From contig CAZSMC010000018.1 of the NCBI GenBank assembly GCA_964607755.1, positions 82 through 64,081 of the forward strand: DNA of 64,000 nucleotides, read 5' to 3'. The notes beneath the pieces were generated by a model that saw nothing but the letters and a program-made list of their open reading frames with translations, did no database searches and was not told the origin of the DNA. Shown piece after piece: positions 79 to 16,983 of the stretch. Within the stretch, counting starts at the first letter, position 1. Every line of letters begins with the position of its first letter. The stretch is from an uncultured Cytophagia bacterium (GTDB lineage Bacteria; Zhuqueibacterota; Zhuqueibacteria; Residuimicrobiales; Krinioviventaceae). The position numbers and the translations under genes were made by a program.

Positions 79-1134
79 GTGAGCGACGGATCAGGCAATG
101 CGATTATTTTGTATTCTGAAAACAGTTGGGAGGTATCCAAATTACAAAAACTGAACAGCGAAGGTAAGTTTTTATGGCACGAGGGTGTGGATATATATTC
201 ACTTGGCAGACAGATGATAAGCGATAATTTAGGCGGTGCCATTATTTCTGGCGTTCGACGGGAATTCGATGGTGTTAGCGTTCAGCATATTGTCGGAGCA
301 AATAGGATCAATCTCGATGGACAATTGCTTTGGGGTGAAAAAGGTATACAGCTTGTTGATTCTCTGGTTTACGAACCACAAAAACCAAAAATGGCTCTTG
401 ATAAAAAACATCAATTATATTGTGTATGGAGTGATAAACGAACTGGAACCTTGGATACATATTTACAACATGTAGATCTTGAGGGTAAATGTCTATTCAA
501 GGAAGGCGGATTGCCAGTGAGTCTTGTAGACTCTGAAAAAGGAAATGCGTTTGTTTACTCTAGCGATAGAGAAAAGGCAATTGTTGTTTTTGGAGATACA
601 AGGCAACCAGATAGGGGATTATACGCGCAAAAAATCGATTCATTGGGTAGAAGATGTTGGTCTAATGGTGTTTTAATTAGTAGTCGTATCCCATCTTCAC
701 TTGATGTAATCTCAGATTTTACGGGTGGAGCAATTTTATGTTGGTATGAAATTGGGACCGGTAGCGGTTGGGGTATATTTGCTCAGCAAGTAAGTCGCTA
801 TGGCAATCTTGGAGAAGTCGTCCGTACTTCCATTGGGAAAAAACCTGCCAGGCCAACTCAATTTGTATTGTACCAAAGCTATCCCAACCCATTCAATTCC
901 GAAACGATCATTAAATACGAGCTTCCCAAGGTTACCCATGTAACCCTAAAAATCTATGATATAAACGGAAAGGAGGTGATGATATTAATTAACAAGAAGC
1001 AACAAGCCGGGATACATCAGGTAATATGGAACGGTAAAAACCATAAAGGAGGTGATGTCTCAAGCGGAATCTATCTCTATCAGCTTTTTGCCGGCAGCTT
1101 TGTTGATAACAAGAAAGGGATTTATGTAAAATAA
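79..1134 (+). CDS. Secreted repeat protein with T9SS (Por) C-terminal sorting domain; the N-terminus may be interrupted.
   Basis: The last ~90 aa (YPNPFNSETIIKYELPKVTHVTLKIYDINGKEV...GIYLYQLFAG) match the T9SS type-A C-terminal sorting domain consensus. Upstream of that are about five ~50-aa repeats (G.AI...W...G) that look like propeller blades. No signal peptide is visible. The same frame carries an in-frame TAG at 64-66, and the upstream frame also encodes repeat-like sequence. Confidence 0.6.
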   Translation: MSDGSGNAIILYSENSWEVSKLQKLNSEGKFLWHEGVDIYSLGRQMISDNLGGAIISGVRREFDGVSVQHIVGANRINLDGQLLWGEKGIQLVDSLVYEPQKPKMALDKKHQLYCVWSDKRTGTLDTYLQHVDLEGKCLFKEGGLPVSLVDSEKGNAFVYSSDREKAIVVFGDTRQPDRGLYAQKIDSLGRRCWSNGVLISSRIPSSLDVISDFTGGAILCWYEIGTGSGWGIFAQQVSRYGNLGEVVRTSIGKKPARPTQFVLYQSYPNPFNSETIIKYELPKVTHVTLKIYDINGKEVMILINKKQQAGIHQVIWNGKNHKGGDVSSGIYLYQLFAGSFVDNKKGIYVK

Positions 1135-7784: not shown

Positions 7785-8039
7785 TGCTGGTAAAAACATT
7801 GTGGTTATAAAACCGGCAAATGACAATTCACTTAAAAAAATTCAAATATATATTGAATAGTCTAAACGGGGGCAGTAAAATGGTAAAGAATTCGACACGA
7901 CATGCTCACGGAACATTAAAATTATTCTTACGTTAATTTAATGTAATTATACTTTTTACGCCAAAATCATTATATCCCATTACATATATTTAATAAGAAA
8001 CATTATAGTGATAAAAGACATGTTTAGAGGCTTTATTTT

Positions 8040-11000
8040 ATGAACAAGAAATTAGAACAGTTTTTAACAAAAATAATGGGCGGATCAAGCACTGAACGCG
8101 AGTTGAAACGCATCCGTCCCATGGTTGATCAGATAAACGAGTTCGCTGAAGAATATAAACAACTCTCGGACGATGAGCTAAAGGCTAAAACAAATGAGTT
8201 CCGCTATCGTCTGCGTACAGGAGAAACTCTGGACGATATTCTGCCGGAAGCTTATGCCGTGGTCAAAGACACTTGCCGCCGGTTGCTTGGAAAAAAATGG
8301 ATGGTCCGGGGCCAGGAAACCGAATGGAATATGGTGCCGTACGATGTGCAGCTTTTGGGTGCCATCATTCTGCACGAAGGCAAAATCGCCGAAATGGCTA
8401 CCGGTGAAGGCAAAACCCTTGTCGCGACTATGCCGCTTTACCTTAACGCTCTGGAAGGAAAAGGCGCCCACCTCGTTACAGTCAATGATTACCTCGCTCA
8501 ACGTGACTGTGAATGGATGGGGGAAATTTACAAGTATTTGGGATTGAGTGTGGCGGCCATTTACGGCGAGCAAGACCCTGAAGATCGAAAAAAGGCCTAT
8601 CAGGCAGATATTACCTACGGCACGAATAATGAATTCGGCTTTGATTATTTGCGCGATAACATGACCAGCGACGTCTGGTCGGTAGTGCAGCGCCCCCTCC
8701 ACTATGCCATTATCGACGAAGTTGACAGCGTACTTATCGACGAAGCGCGTACACCACTGATCATTTCCGGTTCTGTTGGTGCACCGCGGAATGTTTATAA
8801 CGAGCTCAAGCCCACAGTAGAAAGCCTGTACCGGAAACAAAAAGAGCTTGTAGACCGGCTCCTTCAGGAAGGCAAGTCGTTGCTCGACAAGGACGAGGAA
8901 AAAGCAGGATTGCTTATCCTTCGCGCCCAACGAGGGGATCCCAAAAATGAGAAATTAATGGAATTGCTTACCTCGGAATTTTGGGTAAAAAAATTGATCG
9001 AACGTATTCAGGGACAGTTTGAAGTCAACAAGGAAATGAATACCGTTGATCAGGAACTGTACTATACGATCGATGAAAAAAGTCATGTGGTCGATATTAC
9101 CGAAAAAGGACGTATTTTCCTGTCCGGAGGGCAGGCTCTAAATGTGGCTGATAAAATCAATCAGCTCGATGACCTGGATGATATGATTCATCATCTCAGC
9201 GAGCAGAAAGATCCATCCCAATATTTTACCCAGGATCCGATTACCGGTTATTGCAACGGTTTTACCCTGGAAGGCAAGTTGGCTCTGCTGAATATGAATG
9301 GTGAAATAACAGATAAAGAAATTGGTGCTCTGGACGAGCTGGATCAAAAATTGACAGCAATCTCCGAGGAAAGCCAACAATCATCCCAGGGCAAAAAAGC
9401 AGACAAAGGCGGCACGTGGCGAAAATATTACAATATCGCAAAAAAAATGGACAGCGCTGTTAATGGTTTATCTCCAGAAGGAAAACAGTTGCTGGCAAAA
9501 GGGATTTCAGATGCGTTGCCCAAAATAGTCGAAGCGTTCGACCTCGTACTCGCCAGGCTTCGGGAAATCGCGGATATTGACAGCGATGGCCGCCTGCCCC
9601 GTCAATTGATCGACGAACGCCGGAAATTGCAGCAGGCTTTTTTTCACAACGACAAACAATCCGGTTGTCCTGTGGGTTTGACAGAGCAGGGACGTATTGC
9701 CCTGCTGGCAGCTATGCTGGGCGGCAATCCGCTGGCCGTGCCAATGATCTTTCAGTTGGAAGACATGCTCAGCAGCTCCGATGGCATTGACGCTAAAAGT
9801 CAGGAGTATTTCGATTTTACTGACAATGGTTCTGCGATCTCTCACATAGCTGAAAAGGGCCGTATCCTTCTTTTAGGCGGCAACCCGGATTTATATGTGC
9901 TGCCCGACCGCAGCATGGTTGAGGAACGCGACCAACAAATTCAGCAGTTGCTGGACAAGACCCTTAATCAGGTGTCGTACGATTACTCGACTCGCGTTCA
10001 AACGGCTGAACAGCTCCAGGAAGATCTGCAAGCCATTCATCAGGCCATTGGATCGCAGCCCAAAGAAAAACGACCGACGTATTTGCGTCGATTCTATGAT
10101 GTCGATTATCGCGACAGGGTGACCAACGAGCCGCTCATGCGCGTGACAGATAAAGGCAAAGCATTTCTCGAAGATTTCAGTTCGCAAACAATATCCGTTG
10201 TTGAAAGGCTCAATGATAGTTTACATAAAAAGAATACCGGTGTTTTTAATATCCAAAATAACACCTTAACCGGGCTCGCAGACGATCAGCTTGACGAGCT
10301 TTTAGGCGATTCGTTTTATAAAATCAATCAGCAAATTGATTCGTGGAATGCGTCGCATTCTGCTGATGCAGACACTTCTTCAGTGAACTTACGCGAGCAC
10401 CTCGATGCTCATCTTGGCCAGGATACCGAATCTGCATCGAGTTTATCCCGGCAGTTTGAAGAAATTGAACGAATCGACCGGATTATCCGCAACGTGTTTT
10501 CAGCACTTGCCAGCAGCGACGTGACCAATGCTGAAAAACGCCGCATTTTGCATCGTTATTTCGAGGTTGACACAAACGACTTGGAAAACATTCAACCCAC
10601 GCCGGATTTGGATATTCGGGGCTTGTCCGAAACCGGGATGCAGCGTCTTATTGGCCGGGCTGCTGACCGCAATGAAGTGTCGGACCGGTTGATTCAACTT
10701 TTGGAAAATCCGGATACAGATCTGGAAAGTGTCTTTGAGATGCAACCGGATGGCTATCCGTCAAACCTGAAAGAATCAGCTCGCAGCCATCTGGTCGATG
10801 GATTACCTTATTATGAATATTCCAGCGGGCTGAAAGAATTCCGCGACGAAGTGCTGCAAATGAGCGCTAACAAAGTCAGTTCCGGCGCAGAGATGGAAAG
10901 CCTGGTTCCGAGAGAGCAGGTGCAGTTGAAAAAGAAAGGCATTGCCCTCAGCGACCGCGAATTGGGTCATTTGATTAGCAAAGCTCATGCGCCAAATACA

Positions 11001-14000
11001 GTGATTACACCTGAAGAAATTGAAGCATGGTTCCGGCTTCATTTTAATGAACTGCCGCGCCGGTATCTGGAATCGAAACGGGATCAGTTATGGCAGGATT
11101 ATACCAAAATCGAAGAGCGCGTACAAAACATTTCGCAATTGCTGCGCGCTTTTACATTATTCCAGCGCGATGTCGATTATGTAGTCAAAGCACCCGATGA
11201 AACCGAGATGCGCCGACATGGCGGACAGCGCGGTCACAAAGCGGTGATGATCGTCGATCAGTTTACCGGCCGTCTTATGCCAGGACGGCGGTTCAGCGAA
11301 GGTCTGCACGAGGCTCTGGAAGCCAAGGAAGGCGTTCAGGTGCAGGCAGAAACGCAAACGCTGGCTACCATTACGCTGCAGAATTTCTTCCGGATTTACG
11401 ACAAATTATCCGGCATGACGGGTACAGCAGAAACAGAGGCTCAGGAATTTTTCAGCACGTATGAACTAGATGTCATTGTCATTCCCACCAATGAACCAGT
11501 CATTCGCGATGACCATGACGATGTTATCTATCGAACTAGAAAAGAAAAATACGAAGCGCTGATTAACGAGGCGATAGAGTTGCATAATGCTGGCCGGCCG
11601 GTATTGATTGGTACAATTTCGGTGGATGTGTCTCAACATCTAAGTGACATGTTCACAGCACGGGGCGTACCGGTTGCTGATTGGTTAAAAAAAGGCGATG
11701 TCGAGAAACAACTGGAATCCGGAAAATTTCATACCGTGCTCAACGCAAAGTATCACAAAAACGAAGCAGAGATCGTCGCCAAAGCAGGTTTGCCCGGCGC
11801 GATTACCATTGCCACAAATATGGCAGGACGTGGAACGGACATCAAGCTGGCGCCCGGTGTGCGCGAAAAAGGCGGCCTGGCTATTTTAGGATCAGAAAAG
11901 CACGAGGCCCGGCGAATCGACCGGCAGCTTCGTGGCCGTGCCGGACGTCAGGGTGATCCAGGATCATCCAGGTTTTATCTTTCACTTGAAGATGATCTGA
12001 TGAGACTCTTTGGTTCGGACCGGATTACCAATATTATGACCCGTGTCGGTTCGATGGAAGAGGGCGAACGCATCGAACACCCACTGATCACAAAGTCTAT
12101 CGAACGTGCGCAGAAAAAGGTTGAAGAGCGCAACTTTGAAATCCGAAAACAACTTTTAGAATATGATGATGTTCTTAACGAACAACGCAAGATCATTTAT
12201 AAGCGCCGTCAGAATTTGCTCGGCTTTGCTGAACCAGAAGACCTGGTCGAAGCAAAGATAAAGCGCTTTATGGGCGATGAGAATGACCGGGCTACCTGGC
12301 ACTTGAACGAGATGGTAGAGAGTCTGAAAAACTTTTTCGGCGTTCATCCGCCTTTTAACGTAGATGAGCTCGAAGCGCAGGATGCGAATGAAATCCGGAA
12401 CCAGGTTAATGAATGGGTTGCTGCTCAAAGTGCGCAGGAACGCCATCGTGAACATCTGCGGGAACGGCACAGAATTTACGGATATTGCGATATCAATGAA
12501 ATTATTCGCGAACTCGTTCATTTTAAAATACGGCTACACGGCGGCACCTCTGGCGATACGGCAAAGTGGAATATCGAAGGCTTGCGATTCGAACTGGACC
12601 GTATCTTTGGTGCAGTGCCGGAATGGCTGCAGGAACCGCTCGAAAACATGTCAGCTCAAGAGGCTGAAAAACGCCTGGTTGAATGGGCGCAGAATTATTA
12701 TGCTCAACTTTTTGAAACCTATCGTGATAAAATCGACCGGATTTTATTCCGCAAACTCGATTTTAAAAAAATGCTGACGATTTTCGTTCAGGGATTGGCT
12801 GCCCAGTATCTGCCAGAAAGTGAGCCGGCAATTAACTGGAATATCAATGACTTTTTTGACCAGCTCGAACGGGTATTTGAAACCCGGCCGGAAATCGGCA
12901 TTAACGAAATACGGACGATTTCCTACAACCGATTGCTGGAAAAATTGACCGATTGGGTAAACCAGCTCGATATTCCGCAACGTGAAGCAGACTATTACCG
13001 GCATCGCATCATCGGACATGTGTCTCCGCAAGGATTTGTCGATATGATCGTACTCTCTGTTGTGCAGCACTTTAATGGCAGCTTGAACGTGAAAACCTTA
13101 TCTCCGGATTTGAAAAAAGCATTAGCAGATGTATTTGATACTGAATTCGTAATCGAGCCGGAGGATAACGAACTGCAGCCGATAGGTCAACTTTTCCGGC
13201 AGGCCCGGCAGTCGTATGCATCGTTTATCGATGAGAATATGGACGTTTACGATGCTGTAACCCTGGCAAAAGCGGATAATGTGGAAGCCCTCGAAGCCGC
13301 TATTACAGCTAAAACAAATTCGGTTTTTGATCAGTATGCCGATACCTCCCAGAACCGGAAAAAACTTTACCGGGACTTTGGCAATATGTTTATGGAAAAA
13401 CCAGAGTTGGCTCTTCCGCAAGCTCAGGATACCCAGGCTATTGCTGCGTTTAAAGAGGATTTAATTTCGTGGGGACATGGTTTTTATAAAACCTATTCGG
13501 ATCACGTAGACCGGATGTATCAAGAACGCCTGTCTAACGAAATTGTGTTTGATACGGTTTTGAGCATGATCGATGATGCAGCTTATACCATGATCCGGGA
13601 TATTTTAGGCCAGGGAGATGTTCTTGATCAAAACCAACTCCGCCGGTTGGAAGCTGAAAGCCGGTTGGTTTTCCGCCGGTCTCCGCGACTGGTCGACGAT
13701 AGCGTTGAAGGCATGAATCCCAACGATGTCATGGACAAACTCAGTAGCTGGGCTCAGGACCTGTATCACAAGCGGGTTAATGAAATCGGTAAAAATCTGG
13801 TAACCCGTTATGAACGGATTCACATTTTGCAGAAAATTGACACTAACTGGCGTCAGCATCTCAGCGGTATTGATGAATTGCGCGAGGGAATTGGCCTGCG
13901 TGGGTACGGTCAAAAAGATCCTCTGCTGGAATACAAGCGAGAAGCGTTTGACATGTTTCAGCGCACTGTCGATACAATTAATCGTGAAACAGTGGGTGCC

Positions 14001-14276
14001 CTGTTCAAATTTTTTGATGTTGGCGGAGAAGTGGAAGAGCAACAAATGCGGCGCAGTGAACCGCAAAGCTTTACCACATCCCACTCCCGGGTGCAGCAGT
14101 TCAAAACGCTCGCTGCAAACAAAAAGCAGGGAAAAAAGACACCCGCACCAGCCAACCGGCCTGGCCAGCCCGCTCGGCAAAAAACTGTGGTGAAAAGCAA
14201 AGAACCTGGCCGGAATGATCCCTGTCCATGCGGCAGTGGGAAAAAATATAAAAAATGCTGCGGCAGAAATGTTTAA
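8040..14276 (+). CDS. secA: Preprotein translocase ATPase SecA, giant form (2078 aa).
   Basis: The translation contains NBD1 ([20 protein letters not shown]...TPLIISG), PPXD ends ([17 protein letters not shown] ... [10 protein letters not shown]...[32 protein letters not shown]), NBD2 ([35 protein letters not shown]), the HSD/HWD ([16 protein letters not shown]) and the C-terminal zinc motif [14 protein letters not shown]. These blocks are separated by about 700 and 420 aa of non-homologous sequence. Confidence 0.9.
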
Positions 14277-14871: not shown

Positions 14872-16983
14872 ATGGGGCAATTTTTTTTAGTGGTAGAGTC
14901 CCTTGGTAAGCAAAAGACTCTGCAAAAAATATTGAATGAAAAGGCAACAGTGATCTATGCCGGACCGCCTCAGAGCGAGTCCGGCGATTTTGCCTTGAAT
15001 GGGGATGCTAATGTTTTTCCGAAAGATTTGACCAGACTGACACGCCAGGACACGGTCTATTTTGCCACCGATCCCAATCTGGTGGGTGAGAAAATAGCTG
15101 CGGCAGCAAAAGATAAATTCCCTGACAATGTCCAGTGCCGGCGTGTGCTGTTAATGAGTTTTACGCCACATTCAGTAAATCATGCTCTGAAAAATGCTGC
15201 CCCTCTTAATGATAAAGGCGCAAAAGCGCACGAGCTTCGCGAGCGGCTGTCCCGGCTTTTTGACCGGACATTCCGGTTTGTCCTTGATGTCCCGTCTTTG
15301 AACAAAGTTCTCCGTCTGGAAACTTTACTCCTTCTTGATTTTCTCGTCCAGGCGGAGATAACTGCCCGGACATCATGTTTTGAGTCTCACTGGACAATCG
15401 ATGTCGAACTAAAAGGGCGCAACAGCAGATTTTGGGCGCCGCTCACAAACGTGAAAGATCAGGACGCTATCTTTTCTGATCCCCACAGTGCCAAAGCGTG
15501 CATCATTGATTTGAAGAAACAGGATTTCAAAATCACCTCAACAGCACCAAAAAGCAAATTCATTCAGCCTCCGCCTCCTTATGTGACGGTCACGCTTTTG
15601 CGCGATGCTGCCCGCGATCTGGGATTTGCACCAGCACAAACAATATCAGTCGCACGATCTCTATACGAGGGTGTGGACATTGGCTTGACATCACCTGTAA
15701 GTTTGATTACTTTTCCATTTACCGCAGAGTACGCCTGTCATCACGAGTGCGTTCAGGCAGTTCGTGAGTTTGTGCTCAATAATTACGGCGTGGATTATGT
15801 GTCTAAACAACAACGGTACAAAAGTGTTTCTGCTTTATCAGTTGCTATCACCCCGGTGGAAATAAAACGAACGCCAAAAAAAGTCCGCAAATACCTGACA
15901 GAACCGCAATATAAATTGTACGAGCTCGTCTGGACAAAAACGGTCTCTTCGCAGATGCGAAATGCTGTAATTAAGCATAATGCGATCGAATGCAGCGCCG
16001 GGCCGGATGATCGATACCAGTTTTTCTTCGAGGATATAAAGATTGATTTTAGAGGATTTCTGCAAGTGGATAGTCATCCGGTTTCATGCACATCAGCAAC
16101 TGGTGAAAATCTGAGAAAAAACCAGCCGCTTGAATGCCTGGGTTTTCGTTTGAACAAAAATGATACTATTCGGACAGAATCGTTCACCGTTGCCAAAGTG
16201 TTTGACATATTGTATCACACCAGCCTGGGACAACCTGAAAATTATGCGGACATGTTGAGCGCCCTTGCCGATTGTCATTTCATCACCATAAAAGACGGCA
16301 GCGTTCATGTCACCACAACCGGTGAAGAAGCGTGCCGGATCATGCACCAACAGTTGCCCCATATTTTTAGCACAGAATTTGCCAAAGGGATCGGAAAGCG
16401 AATAGACCTTGTTTTGCGTGGGCGTAAAAAAAGTGAGGACGTTTTTCGTCAATATTCAAATATTATTGATACAGCCATTCAAAAAATAGCGTCGCAAAAA
16501 CAGGTGTGTCCCTTATGCGGTGGAAAGCTCATTCTCCGCGAATCGGAAACATCACAGCGGGTTTGTGAGTTATATCCTTATCAATGTGACTATGTTGAGT
16601 CAATTACAGATGGAAATTCCACGCAGGTTTGTGATAAATGCGGAGCAGAAATGGTTGTTCGCAACGGCCGCTACGGACGCTTTTTAGCCTGTTCGCGGTT
16701 TCCGGAATGTCATTTCACAAAACCGTACACTATCAATGTAAAATGTCCTTCCGATGGATGCGATGGGGATGTAATTGAAAGATATTCTGCAACCGGATAT
16801 CTGTTTTATGGCTGCTCCAAATATCCGGCCTGTAAATTTGCCAGTTGGCTCAAACCAGTTAATGTTGCTTGTCCGTACTGCGGTCACACATACATGGTTG
16901 AAAAACATCAGGACCAGGATTGCTTGCTTTTTTGTCCTAACTGTAAGAATACTATGAAAGAAACCATAACAACAGCTCAATGA
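14872..16983 (+). CDS. Type IA DNA topoisomerase I homolog with an apparently degenerate active site.
   Basis: The N-terminal Toprim is present (LVVVESLGKQKT; ATDPNLVGE against E. coli ATDLDREGE). The domain III core aligns (PPPPYVTVTLLRDAARDLGF...ARSLYEG...SLITFPFTAE against [20 protein letters not shown]...AQRLYEAGYITYMRTDS). Four C-terminal Cys4 topoisomerase-type zinc ribbons follow. The catalytic Tyr and Arg positions read F and F, and D113/E115 equivalents read N and V. Confidence 0.7.
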   Translation: MGQFFLVVESLGKQKTLQKILNEKATVIYAGPPQSESGDFALNGDANVFPKDLTRLTRQDTVYFATDPNLVGEKIAAAAKDKFPDNVQCRRVLLMSFTPHSVNHALKNAAPLNDKGAKAHELRERLSRLFDRTFRFVLDVPSLNKVLRLETLLLLDFLVQAEITARTSCFESHWTIDVELKGRNSRFWAPLTNVKDQDAIFSDPHSAKACIIDLKKQDFKITSTAPKSKFIQPPPPYVTVTLLRDAARDLGFAPAQTISVARSLYEGVDIGLTSPVSLITFPFTAEYACHHECVQAVREFVLNNYGVDYVSKQQRYKSVSALSVAITPVEIKRTPKKVRKYLTEPQYKLYELVWTKTVSSQMRNAVIKHNAIECSAGPDDRYQFFFEDIKIDFRGFLQVDSHPVSCTSATGENLRKNQPLECLGFRLNKNDTIRTESFTVAKVFDILYHTSLGQPENYADMLSALADCHFITIKDGSVHVTTTGEEACRIMHQQLPHIFSTEFAKGIGKRIDLVLRGRKKSEDVFRQYSNIIDTAIQKIASQKQVCPLCGGKLILRESETSQRVCELYPYQCDYVESITDGNSTQVCDKCGAEMVVRNGRYGRFLACSRFPECHFTKPYTINVKCPSDGCDGDVIERYSATGYLFYGCSKYPACKFASWLKPVNVACPYCGHTYMVEKHQDQDCLLFCPNCKNTMKETITTAQ

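Follow-up and report, generated by a model that had tools for sequence, protein, structure and literature searches.

The window, a stretch of 64,000 nucleotides, contains a secA open reading frame at 8040..14276 (+ strand, as are all features described below) that starts with ATG and encodes 2078 amino acids followed by a stop codon. The protein is 2.3 times the size of a normal SecA, in agreement with the earlier note, which had described it as more than twice the normal length, and its full-length homologues span 2049–2111 aa (hereafter the giants). It is a bona fide SecA with every domain in the same order as in the solved SecAs. Pfam matched SecA_DEAD (2.3e-121), P-loop_SecA, SecA_SW and SEC-C, with the SecA_PP_bind match confined to the C-terminal half (aa 1015–1094, profile positions 48–110). 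The alignment to Bacillus subtilis SecA (1tf2) consists of three collinear blocks (17–266 = 14–250, 1030–1409 = 292–636, and 1887–2077 = 677–843), the best collinear match to a solved SecA reaches an E-value of 3e-206, and the protein retains intact Walker A, DEAD-box and GYGQKDP motifs. The Pfam domains and the three-block alignment bear out the earlier statement that all canonical blocks are present and collinear. Canonical SecAs (Escherichia coli, 901 aa; B. subtilis, 841 aa; PDB 2fsf, 1tf2, 1m6n, 3din) share the domain order of the giant: NBD1, the PPXD inserted in NBD1, NBD2, the scaffold helix, the helical wing domain (HWD), the two-helix finger, the linker and the zinc finger.

The catalytic core (NBD1, NBD2, scaffold helix, two-helix finger and zinc finger) is canonical. 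The first part of NBD1 (aa 1–244, 8040..8771) carries the Walker A sequence GEGKT, the DEVD box and TPLIISG, matches SecA_DEAD, corresponds to 1tf2 residues 14–250 and is 75–90% identical among the giants. It is followed by the N-terminal part of the PPXD (aa 245–360, 8772..9119), a helical segment plus a unit designated U1 that is common to FCB-type SecAs. The canonical C-terminal half of the PPXD (aa 1013–1110, 11076..11369) is matched by SecA_PP_bind and corresponds to 1tf2 from residue 292. The remaining NBD1 and NBD2 (aa 1111–1345, 11370..12074; P-loop_SecA) contain an extra small clade-specific insert of 19 aa at aa 1212–1230, and the HSD scaffold helix (aa 1346–1396, 12075..12227; 1tf2 alignment, AF2 model) is 91% identical among the giants. 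IRA1, the two-helix finger and the basic C-terminal linker (pI 10.5) occupy aa 1951–2055 (13890..14204; Pfam, 1tf2 alignment, AF2), and the SEC-C zinc finger lies at 14205..14273 (PF02810, 1e-09; PDB zinc-finger peptides 1tm6 and 1sx0). The segment previously named the HWD core is the two-helix-finger/IRA1 segment.

The additional length is concentrated in two places. The spacing between TPLIISG and DxxTGR is 835 aa versus 97–118 aa in short SecAs and ∼200–250 aa in the FCB-type relatives, and the spacing between LLEYDDV and GYGQKDP is 581 aa versus 125–199 aa elsewhere; where B. subtilis SecA has 41 and 40 residues the giant has 763 and 477. Both spacings are bimodal across SecAs and no intermediate-length forms were seen in a survey of the two. 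The large extra stretch between the HSD and the HWD region reported in the earlier note was therefore recovered, and so was the long PPXD spacing, but its estimate of ∼700 extra PPXD residues included aa 245–360, which are common to ordinary FCB-type SecAs (aa 60–360 of the giant align to residues 101–401 of normal relatives). Alignment to these relatives limits the clade-specific sequence to approximately aa 361–960/1012 (insert 1, ∼600–650 aa) and 1397–1893 (insert 2, ∼440 aa).

The PPXD bulb contains roughly nine copies (U1–U9) of its beta-hairpin-helix unit, and a helical return arm comes after them. The clearest amplification is bracketed by U1, the first canonical unit (aa 338–365; 98.3% to the canonical PPXD profile), and U5 (94.3%), which carries the canonical downstream junction. 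Insert 1a (aa 361–650, 9120..9989) contains U2 (∼aa 393), U3 (462), U4 (532) and U5 (588), connected by hhalign links of 80–94%, and hairpins begin in the AF2 model at residues 396, 464, 535 and 591. A unit HMM scored U1, U2, U4 and U5 at 34–45 bits, a match by construction because the model was built from those four, and U3 at 3.8 bits versus a shuffle maximum of 2.3. The TxxG glycine does not vary among 57 giants. Insert 1b (aa 651–1012, 9990..11075) comprises the putative diverged units U6 (∼aa 686), U7 (736), U8 (841) and U9 (899) and the return arm. The short unit HMM did not match U6–U9; hhalign values of 81–85% to the earlier units and AF2 secondary structure (pLDDT 80–95) hint that they are PPXD units. 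The insert-1 amplification comprises five robust unit copies, and nine in the AlphaFold model.

The HWD is present in six tandem copies of ∼90 aa (H1–H6). H6 (aa 1854–1950, 13599..13889) is the original, matching the canonical HWD profile at 98.6% as well as SecA_SW and corresponding to 1tf2 from residue 677. The five extra copies make up insert 2, and three of them match the canonical profile at 86–95%: H1 (aa 1405–1494, 12252..12521; 93.9%), H2 (aa 1495–1584, 12522..12791; 95.3%) and H3 (aa 1585–1673, 12792..13058; 86.4%). In-register hhalign comparisons of family sub-profiles connect H1 with H3 (98.8%, E = 4.5e-17), H1 with H2 (96.9%), H2 with H4 (97.3%) and H2 with H6 (95.7%). A unit HMM built from H1–H3, which scored its own model-building units H1 and H3 at 87.7 and 74.2 bits, gave H5 and H6 higher scores than any of 300 shuffles and, in every normal SecA that it matched, had the HWD as its only site. 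The diverged H4 (aa 1674–1760, 13059..13319) was not matched by this HMM and reaches 11% against the canonical profile; it is linked through H2 only and shows periodic helices in the AF2 model. H5 (aa 1761–1853, 13320..13598), also diverged, scored 9.6 bits versus a shuffle maximum of 5.8, with H2–H5 at 61%. For H4 and H5 the sequence therefore points only faintly to HWD copies. Tryptophans 1420, 1459, 1510, 1549, 1600, 1639, 1811 and 1904 are invariant in 57 giants.

In a scan of the whole protein all off-diagonal matches ≥70% lie inside the two insert regions, and NBD1, NBD2 and the C-terminus have no such match. The canonical HWD and PPXD profiles were built from normal SecAs only, all cross-controls were <18%, and no single repeat unit reached any Pfam model. 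The inserts are confidently folded in two partial AF2 models, a check proposed in the earlier note, although the underlying alignments are shallow (21–24 sequences, single clade): aa 1345–2010 gave a pLDDT of 87.4 and a pTM of 0.80 with periodic helices, and aa 225–1110 a pLDDT of 78.2 and a pTM of only 0.55, with the insert at 80–95 and the motif positions coinciding with nine hairpin-helix units. A structure search with the C-terminal model returned SecA structures only. Profiles and models together indicate that the inserts consist of SecA's own modules, duplicated in tandem and folded. The protein is 2.3 times the normal size because its two movable domains contain tandem copies of their own parts, about nine in the PPXD and six in the HWD, whereas canonical SecA has one PPXD hairpin-helix unit and one HWD. 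The earlier reading of a SecA with two insertions stands, but it missed this duplication. The duplications are old; a search for DNA-level repeats within the gene found none.

Uncultured KSB1-type bacteria (FCB superphylum) of one clade have the giant form as their standard SecA. This form is represented by 44 protein clusters of 2049–2111 aa (51–91% identity, 100% coverage) and by 13 genome loci, one of them on the complete 6.5-Mb chromosome OY843751.1 and others on contigs of 2.4, 1.2 and 1.0 Mb, in independent assemblies from many studies. One metagenome-assembled genome (GCA_034521575.1, L064) has a frameshift near aa 790 that breaks secA in two. The gene is otherwise 62–64% identical over its full length, consistent with a sequencing error. 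In a core-only tree 52 distinct giants group together as one monophyletic branch that includes no SecA of normal length. The earlier note had reasoned that a length routine in the lineage would be less novel; it is routine, but no description of a giant SecA was found in the searchable literature. The nearest relatives by core are FCB-type SecAs of 1,010–1,240 aa (Calditrichota/KSB1 relatives, Rhodothermales, Sumerlaeota; L015–L060, P0047–P0120), which have the gene neighbourhood, the helical PPXD segment (aa 245–340) and the FVVPD-type junction in common with the giants. Unlike in the giants, the unit HMMs find just one HWD and one PPXD unit in these SecAs, which also carry inserts of their own that are missing from the giants (∼45 aa near the N-terminus and ∼100 aa in NBD2). 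The order ilvE-nusB-secA-DUF494-topA is kept around all giants, and in the nearest relatives (L015–L024) the same slot holds a secA of 1038–1064 aa; by locus position, the giant gene is probably the housekeeping secA orthologue.

Alternatively, the giant might be an accessory SecA2-like paralogue with specialised substrates while a normal SecA elsewhere does the housekeeping. This is improbable. The long stem of the giants in the core tree (at least 0.367 to any normal SecA versus at most 0.23 within the clade) could also fit a diverged paralogue, and SecA2 (mycobacteria, Clostridioides, Listeria; PDB 4uaq, 6sxh) is, like the giant, a divergent family member with altered PPXD/HWD regions. However, the giant fills the slot that is home to the only secA detected in related genomes, no genome had two loci in a 63-locus motif scan whose patterns reached SecAs as distant as Firmicutes, and the core is under very strong constraint (approximate omega of 0.013). 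The characterised members of SecA2 are smaller than SecA1; these second copies are chains of 778–786 aa, whereas the giant is enlarged, still has the zinc finger at its C-terminus as well as a complete HWD, and lies in the housekeeping locus.

Somewhat less probable still is that the inserts are functionally neutral spacers, disordered or low-complexity, whose looping out of surface domains makes them tolerable. They are acidic as the earlier note stated (pI ∼4.85; net charge −36 and −30 for inserts 1 and 2) and helix-rich, they evolve 4–8 times faster than the core, and the two domains that hold them are known for tolerating variation between lineages. Their glutamine content (6.4% and 5.6% versus 5.2% in the core) does not agree with the earlier description as Gln-rich, nor does their sequence entropy (4.07–4.13 bits versus 4.14 in the core, 0 windows of 30 aa <3.0 bits) with that as low-complexity. 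Against spacers, pLDDT is 80–95 over most of both inserts, and their lengths are conserved in a nearly gap-free alignment throughout a family with core distances up to 0.23. The units contain invariant Trp and Gly positions and the block aa 601–650 is 75% identical family-wide. The inserts are under purifying selection: dN/dS versus a 91%-identical homologue is 0.013 for the core, 0.048 for insert 1 and 0.10 for insert 2, values that are only approximate because dS (0.85–2.0) is near saturation.

That the inserts came from outside, as inteins, as a mobile element or as domains taken from another protein family, is very unlikely. Their sizes are typical of captured domains and single units lack a Pfam match, but Pfam identified no Hint, intein or transposase domain, which upholds the earlier view that they are not intein-like, and their GC content does not differ from that of the remaining gene. 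Searches for insert 2 (1.84e9 representatives) returned the giants and their fragments only and those for insert 1 (5.8e9 sequences) KSB1 SecA fragments only, which confirms that both insertions are lineage-restricted; moreover, both inserts share homology with the host domains beside them, and the cross-controls were clean. An assembly chimera, gene fusion or read-through of frameshifted or pseudogenised sequence, which the earlier note had named as a possible refutation, is effectively refuted despite the split copy in GCA_034521575.1 and several partial database entries, since SecAs of 2049–2111 aa are routine in the lineage, the same uninterrupted frame recurs in independent assemblies including a complete chromosome, base composition is uniform along the gene, the inserts are collinear and constrained, and the frameshifted copy is otherwise full-length.

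Lineage-specific, conserved and surface-located insertions are also found in thermophile SecAs, with signature inserts of 50 aa (Thermotogales/Aquificales) and 76 aa (Thermales) (PMC7023208). In size they fall an order of magnitude short of those of the giant, and for neither is a host-domain repeat reported; the 50-aa insert is described as stabilising ADP/ATP binding (PMC7023208), and therefore lies near the nucleotide site and not in the PPXD or HWD.

We consider it likely that the protein is the housekeeping SecA ATPase of the KSB1-type clade, with two appendage domains enlarged by internal duplication and a canonical motor core. Both mobile appendage domains, the PPXD and the HWD, grew by successive duplications within the protein on the clade's stem branch. 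The motor would still work as SecA, pushing preproteins through SecYEG in an ATP-driven manner by means of the clamp and the two-helix finger, and the two arrays would add large acidic surfaces beside the preprotein clamp. An alteration of the motor chemistry by the arrays seems less plausible; most plausibly they may form an enlarged platform for holding substrates or docking partners (preprotein, ribosome or SecDF-type contacts).

The secA gene at 8040–14276 of the forward strand consists of a single uninterrupted ORF of 2078 aa in the window, and the GC content along it is uniform. As the earlier note had claimed, all SecA blocks are present and collinear, with the Pfam modules in the canonical order: NBD1 (SecA_DEAD PF07517, E = 2.3e-121, with PF00270 also matched), the preprotein cross-linking domain (PPXD) within NBD1 (SecA_PP_bind PF01043, aa 1015–1094, E = 1.6e-21, covering profile positions 48–110 only), NBD2 with the arginine-finger region (P-loop_SecA PF21090, E = 1.7e-68), the scaffold helix (HSD), helical wing domain (HWD) and two-helix finger (SecA_SW PF07516, E = 1.1e-56), and the C-terminal SEC-C zinc finger (PF02810, E = 1e-09), to which the PDB peptides 1tm6, 1sx0 and 1ozb were also aligned. 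The Walker A (GEGKT) and Walker B (DEVD) motifs are readable in the translation. The N-terminal unit of the PPXD (U1) scores 98.3% against the canonical PPXD profile, and the segment H6 scores 98.6% against the canonical HWD profile. Bacillus subtilis SecA (1tf2) aligns in three collinear blocks (E = 3e-206), with NBD1 falling on 1tf2 residues 14–250 and aa 1030–1409 on residues 292–636. In this alignment 763 residues of the giant protein stand opposite 41 B. subtilis residues in the PPXD (insert 1) and 477 opposite 40 in the HWD region (insert 2), and the distances between invariant motifs agree with those estimated in the earlier note; the motif GYGQKDP, which had been assigned to the HWD core, belongs to the two-helix finger. 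Judged from its sequence, the protein possesses every SecA feature that can be tested at that level. Upstream of secA lies a 255-nt AT-rich intergenic region (7785–8039; 35–37% GC vs. ~47% in the genes), in which a weak GAGG 11 nt before the ATG is the sole feature resembling a ribosome-binding site; a promoter and terminator scan of the secA region gave no signal above shuffled sequence.

The giant form is lineage-wide. In 5.8 billion proteins searched, 44 clusters of 2049–2111 aa matched with 100% query coverage and 51–91% identity; their named members are labelled "candidate division KSB1 bacterium", and below these clusters the matches fall directly to SecAs of ~1,150 aa. The exact sequence is absent from a collection of 15 billion proteins, where the nearest sequence shares 91% identity. 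When one genome per species was scanned, the giant gene was located at 13 loci (record titles KSB1, "Calditrichota" or "uncultured Cytophagia"), among them one on the complete 6.5-Mb chromosome OY843751.1 and one on the 2.45-Mb contig CAXXMD010000002.1. The inserts are nearly gap-free in the family alignment, and in a tree built from the core after removal of both inserts the 52 distinct giants form one clade that includes no normal-length SecA, with core distances of ≤0.23 inside the clade and ≥0.367 to any other SecA. The anchor spacings are bimodal, at 97–375 vs. 800–855 aa in the PPXD and 125–199 vs. 575–599 aa in the HWD region, with no intermediates. Together, these observations exclude an assembly chimera or a frameshift read-through as the source of the long ORF. 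The suggestion that such a length might be routine in the lineage holds for a KSB1-type clade, throughout which the giant form occurs (44 clusters, 13 loci), whereas relatives outside the clade are shorter. Public entries for the giants are variously labelled SecA, "SEC-C domain-containing protein", "hypothetical protein" and "DEAD/DEAH box helicase, partial", and the annotation of the several that now bear one of the last three names stands to gain. In one KSB1 metagenome-assembled genome (GCA_034521575.1, contig JAXHMJ010000001.1 of 551 kb, locus L064:8001-14205) the giant secA was called as a 794-aa N-terminal protein and a 49-aa SEC-C fragment. A tblastn comparison places one frameshift near aa 790 and otherwise yields 62–64% identity to the giant SecA up to aa 2061, where the match ends; the separately called 49-aa piece suggests a second break near the C-terminus. 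This split is probably a sequencing error, with a real split gene as the alternative.

Within insert 2, the motif W-x-[IL]-x-x-[LMF]-x-x-x-L-x-x-x-F is recognizable by eye at aa 1418, 1508, 1598, 1687, 1774 and 1867, dividing the region into six units (H1–H6, of which H6 is the canonical HWD) with a period of 87–93 aa. Sub-profiles of the family alignment match one another in register (H1–H3 98.8%, E = 4.5e-17; H1–H2 96.9%; H2–H4 97.3%), and for H2 against H6, on which the canonical HWD aligns, the figure is 95.7%. As a control, 101 windows of 70 aa across the whole protein were compared, and off-diagonal matches at ≥70% were confined to the HWD region (24) and the PPXD region (13), with none in NBD1, NBD2 or the C-terminus. 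Against a canonical HWD profile built from normal-length SecAs alone, H1, H2 and H3 score 93.9%, 95.3% and 86.4% in register, and cross-comparisons of the HWD units with the PPXD profile all remain below 18%. An HMM derived from H1–H3 recovers H5 at 9.6 bits and H6 at 13.0 bits (best of 300 shuffles, 5.8 bits) and matches 28 of 111 normal SecAs (i-E < 1e-3) at exactly one site each, the HWD; H4 is joined to the array through H2 alone. The net extra length of ~437–440 aa equals five units of ~88 aa. Insert 2 is accordingly a tandem series of HWD copies, a reading that extends to H4 and H5 only in part. Single units searched against Pfam at E ≤ 10 gave noise and no SecA family; the repeats are detectable only by profile–profile comparison and family-derived HMMs.

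Insert 1 has a comparable organization. The canonical first element of the PPXD bulb (U1) is a beta-hairpin followed by a short helix, and the pattern [YF][YF]-x(9-12)-G-[LIF]-[TS]-x-x-G-x-x-x-L recurs at ~aa 393, 462, 532 and 588, with looser recurrences at aa 687, 731, 847 and 895, giving nine units (U1–U9). The units are linked by hhalign at 80–94%, and U5, like U1, matches the canonical PPXD profile (94.3%). A 29-residue HMM built from U1, U2, U4 and U5 scores these training units at 34–45 bits, which follows from its construction. It also detects U3, at 3.8 bits against at most 2.3 bits for shuffled sequence, and finds one site per protein in the six normal SecAs that it reached. Residues 245–360 are common to ordinary FCB-type SecAs, and the clade-specific part spans ~aa 361 to 960/1012. 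In canonical FCB-type SecAs the sequence FFAIDEKAHTIDLTDKGRESLSPGHPAMFVVPD is equivalent to the N-terminal part of U1 joined to the C-terminal part of U5, and in a global profile alignment residues 402–416 of the relatives fall on residues 611–625 of the giant; this is the pattern to be expected of a tandem amplification with the two junction copies at its ends. U1–U5 are thus tandem repeats, a reading that extends to U6–U9 only in part.

On the question raised in the earlier note, whether the inserts form discrete domains, AlphaFold2 models based on family alignments show both confidently modelled as repeat arrays (mean pLDDT 87.4 and 78.2 for the HWD and PPXD regions). The model of aa 1345–2010 (pTM 0.80) is all-helical with a repeating helix pattern, and SecA structures alone were significant in a Foldseek search of the PDB. 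In the model of aa 225–1110 (pTM 0.55) the insert lies mostly at pLDDT 80–95 and only the truncated canonical flanks are poor. It contains nine hairpin-plus-helix units, with first strands at aa 342, 396, 464, 535, 591, 686, 736, 841 and 899, that coincide with the sequence-motif positions, after which long helices lead back to the canonical PPXD; Foldseek against the PDB returned nothing significant for this model (best E = 0.9). The earlier description of the inserts as acidic, Gln-rich and low in complexity survives only for their acidity (pI ~4.85, net charge −36 and −30): glutamine makes up 6.4% and 5.6% (5.2% in the core), and entropy is 4.07–4.13 bits compared with 4.14 bits in the core.

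An intein origin was rejected, in line with the earlier note: the inserts lack Hint blocks (no Hint/intein family in Pfam at E ≤ 0.01), a junction Cys/Ser/Thr and the terminal HN motif, and they are homologous to SecA's own domains. An origin from foreign domains was likewise rejected. The insertions had been called lineage-specific, and searches of each insert alone returned giants or their fragments, apart from two weak matches to insert 2. Insert 1 (5.8 billion proteins) retrieved five partial KSB1 SecA fragments and nothing else. Insert 2 (phmmer, 1.84 billion representatives) retrieved seven proteins, five of them giants or fragments of giants; a sixth (P0131) is an FG-GAP repeat protein and spurious. 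The seventh (P0130, 271 aa) combines a PIN domain with a segment whose pattern is nearly the same as that of H1 (LLGDLQLFFGQTPPFSPENLERYSADEIKTDLQQWV...); it has the look of a short-contig gene call that is chimeric or frameshifted. Among the proteins searched, neither insert occurs outside the giant clade, and no intermediate-length SecA was seen among the sequences compared. Internal tandem duplication within an essential enzyme, not domain capture, produced the arrays.

At the DNA level, the giant secA contains only two short chance matches as repeats. The lack of residual DNA repeats, together with conservation across the family, shows that the duplications are old and predate the radiation of the clade. 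Eight Trp positions across the HWD array are invariant in 57 of 57 aligned giants, as is the TxxG glycine of U1, U2, U4 and U5, and the block at aa 601–650 is 75% identical across the family. Measured against the homologue that shares 91% identity, dN/dS rises from 0.013 in the core to 0.048 in insert 1 and 0.10 in insert 2, values that are approximate with dS near saturation.

The giant secA is flanked by genes for a class IV aminotransferase (IlvE-like), NusB, a DUF494 protein and a type IA topoisomerase, and the arrangement ilvE-nusB-secA-DUF494-topA is identical in order and orientation around all giants. The same four neighbors flank the 1038–1064-aa secA of the nearest normal-length relatives (L015–L024), and because of this shared neighborhood the giant is the positional orthologue of ordinary secA. 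Further out in the window the genes are likewise of housekeeping type, encoding RecJ, a XerC/D-like recombinase, HPr kinase, ProRS and Era. The 64-kb window holds one secA, and a motif scan found two secA loci in no assembly; the giant is probably the housekeeping SecA of its lineage. The marks of an accessory SecA2 are a shortened architecture with a reduced HWD, no C-terminal zinc finger and an accessory-secretion gene context, and this identity was rejected for the giant, which has the zinc finger, a full HWD and housekeeping neighbors. The topoisomerase IA-like ORF downstream of secA (14872–16983, forward strand; 703 aa) matches Topoisom_bac from residue 155 onward only, plus zinc ribbons, and Toprim was not matched (Pfam, E ≤ 0.001); it is syntenic everywhere, although relatives share only 24–35% identity and its neighbors are far more conserved. 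An ORF of 351 aa at 79–1134 (forward strand) carries Por_Secre_tail (type IX secretion C-terminal sorting) and FlgD-Ig-like domains, which fits an organism of the FCB superphylum that exports T9SS cargo via Sec.

Normal-length relatives of ~1,124 aa (L033–L049, L015–L031) carry insertions of their own, ~45 aa near the N-terminus (residues 56–100) and ~100 aa in NBD2 (666–765), that are absent from the giants, whereas the giants have small extra segments at aa 1052–1066 and 1212–1230. SecA inserts are thus distributed as a mosaic in this part of the FCB group. One SecA-family protein (P0059, 1422 aa), unrelated to the giant clade, is annotated with an extra PF01134 (GIDA) domain and may represent fused genes or a merged call. 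In the one paper found on lineage-specific SecA inserts, those described as "large" comprise 50 aa in the Thermotogales/Aquificales, tied to ADP/ATP binding, and 76 aa in the Thermales (PMC7023208); the giant inserts are 6 to 10 times larger. In the literature searched, mostly outside subscription journals so that an earlier mention is possible, no description was found of a giant SecA, of tandem duplication within the PPXD or HWD, or of a KSB1 SecA.

Overall, the giant SecA combines a canonical, highly constrained core with two acidic, conserved repeat arrays, folded in the AlphaFold2 models, that derive from the PPXD and HWD. In anatomy and evolution it is very probably a housekeeping SecA shared by its whole lineage, which reached 2.3 times the normal size as modules of the two mobile domains were duplicated internally in tandem. 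ATP-dependent translocation through SecYEG, the function of the SecA family, is predicted for it from sequence. The PPXD and HWD are appendage domains, each looped out of its parent domain in the B. subtilis, Escherichia coli and Thermotoga maritima structures, and the preprotein clamp opens and closes as the PPXD swings between the HWD and NBD2. Since each array starts and ends at canonical junctions, it would have to loop out from its host domain, which would add large negatively charged surfaces beside the clamp and leave the ATPase and two-helix finger unaltered. In-cell data from Mycoplasma pneumoniae are reported to show that the SecA–SecY interface consists chiefly of the HSD and PPXD, that preprotein density sits on the PPXD and that the HWD touches SecDF (bioRxiv 10.1101/2025.04.25.650208). 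Put forward tentatively, the most likely role of the arrays is to enlarge the surface on which preproteins or partners are held or docked. It is a somewhat more doubtful proposal that the two acidic arrays constitute a built-in substrate-holding or partner-docking platform around the clamp, which would make this a structurally new form of translocation motor; such a motor would take over jobs that normally fall to separate factors, for example holding unfolded preproteins as a chaperone does, or contacting the ribosome or SecDF.

SecA is among the most intensively studied bacterial machines, and the roles of the HWD and of PPXD bulb mobility are debated. The giant represents a natural experiment that bears on what both domains do, with the HWD multiplied six-fold and the PPXD unit approximately nine-fold around a nearly unchanged core (omega 0.013). 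As a presumably obligatory, conserved form in a housekeeping locus, it can also serve as a clean molecular marker of one KSB1-type clade.
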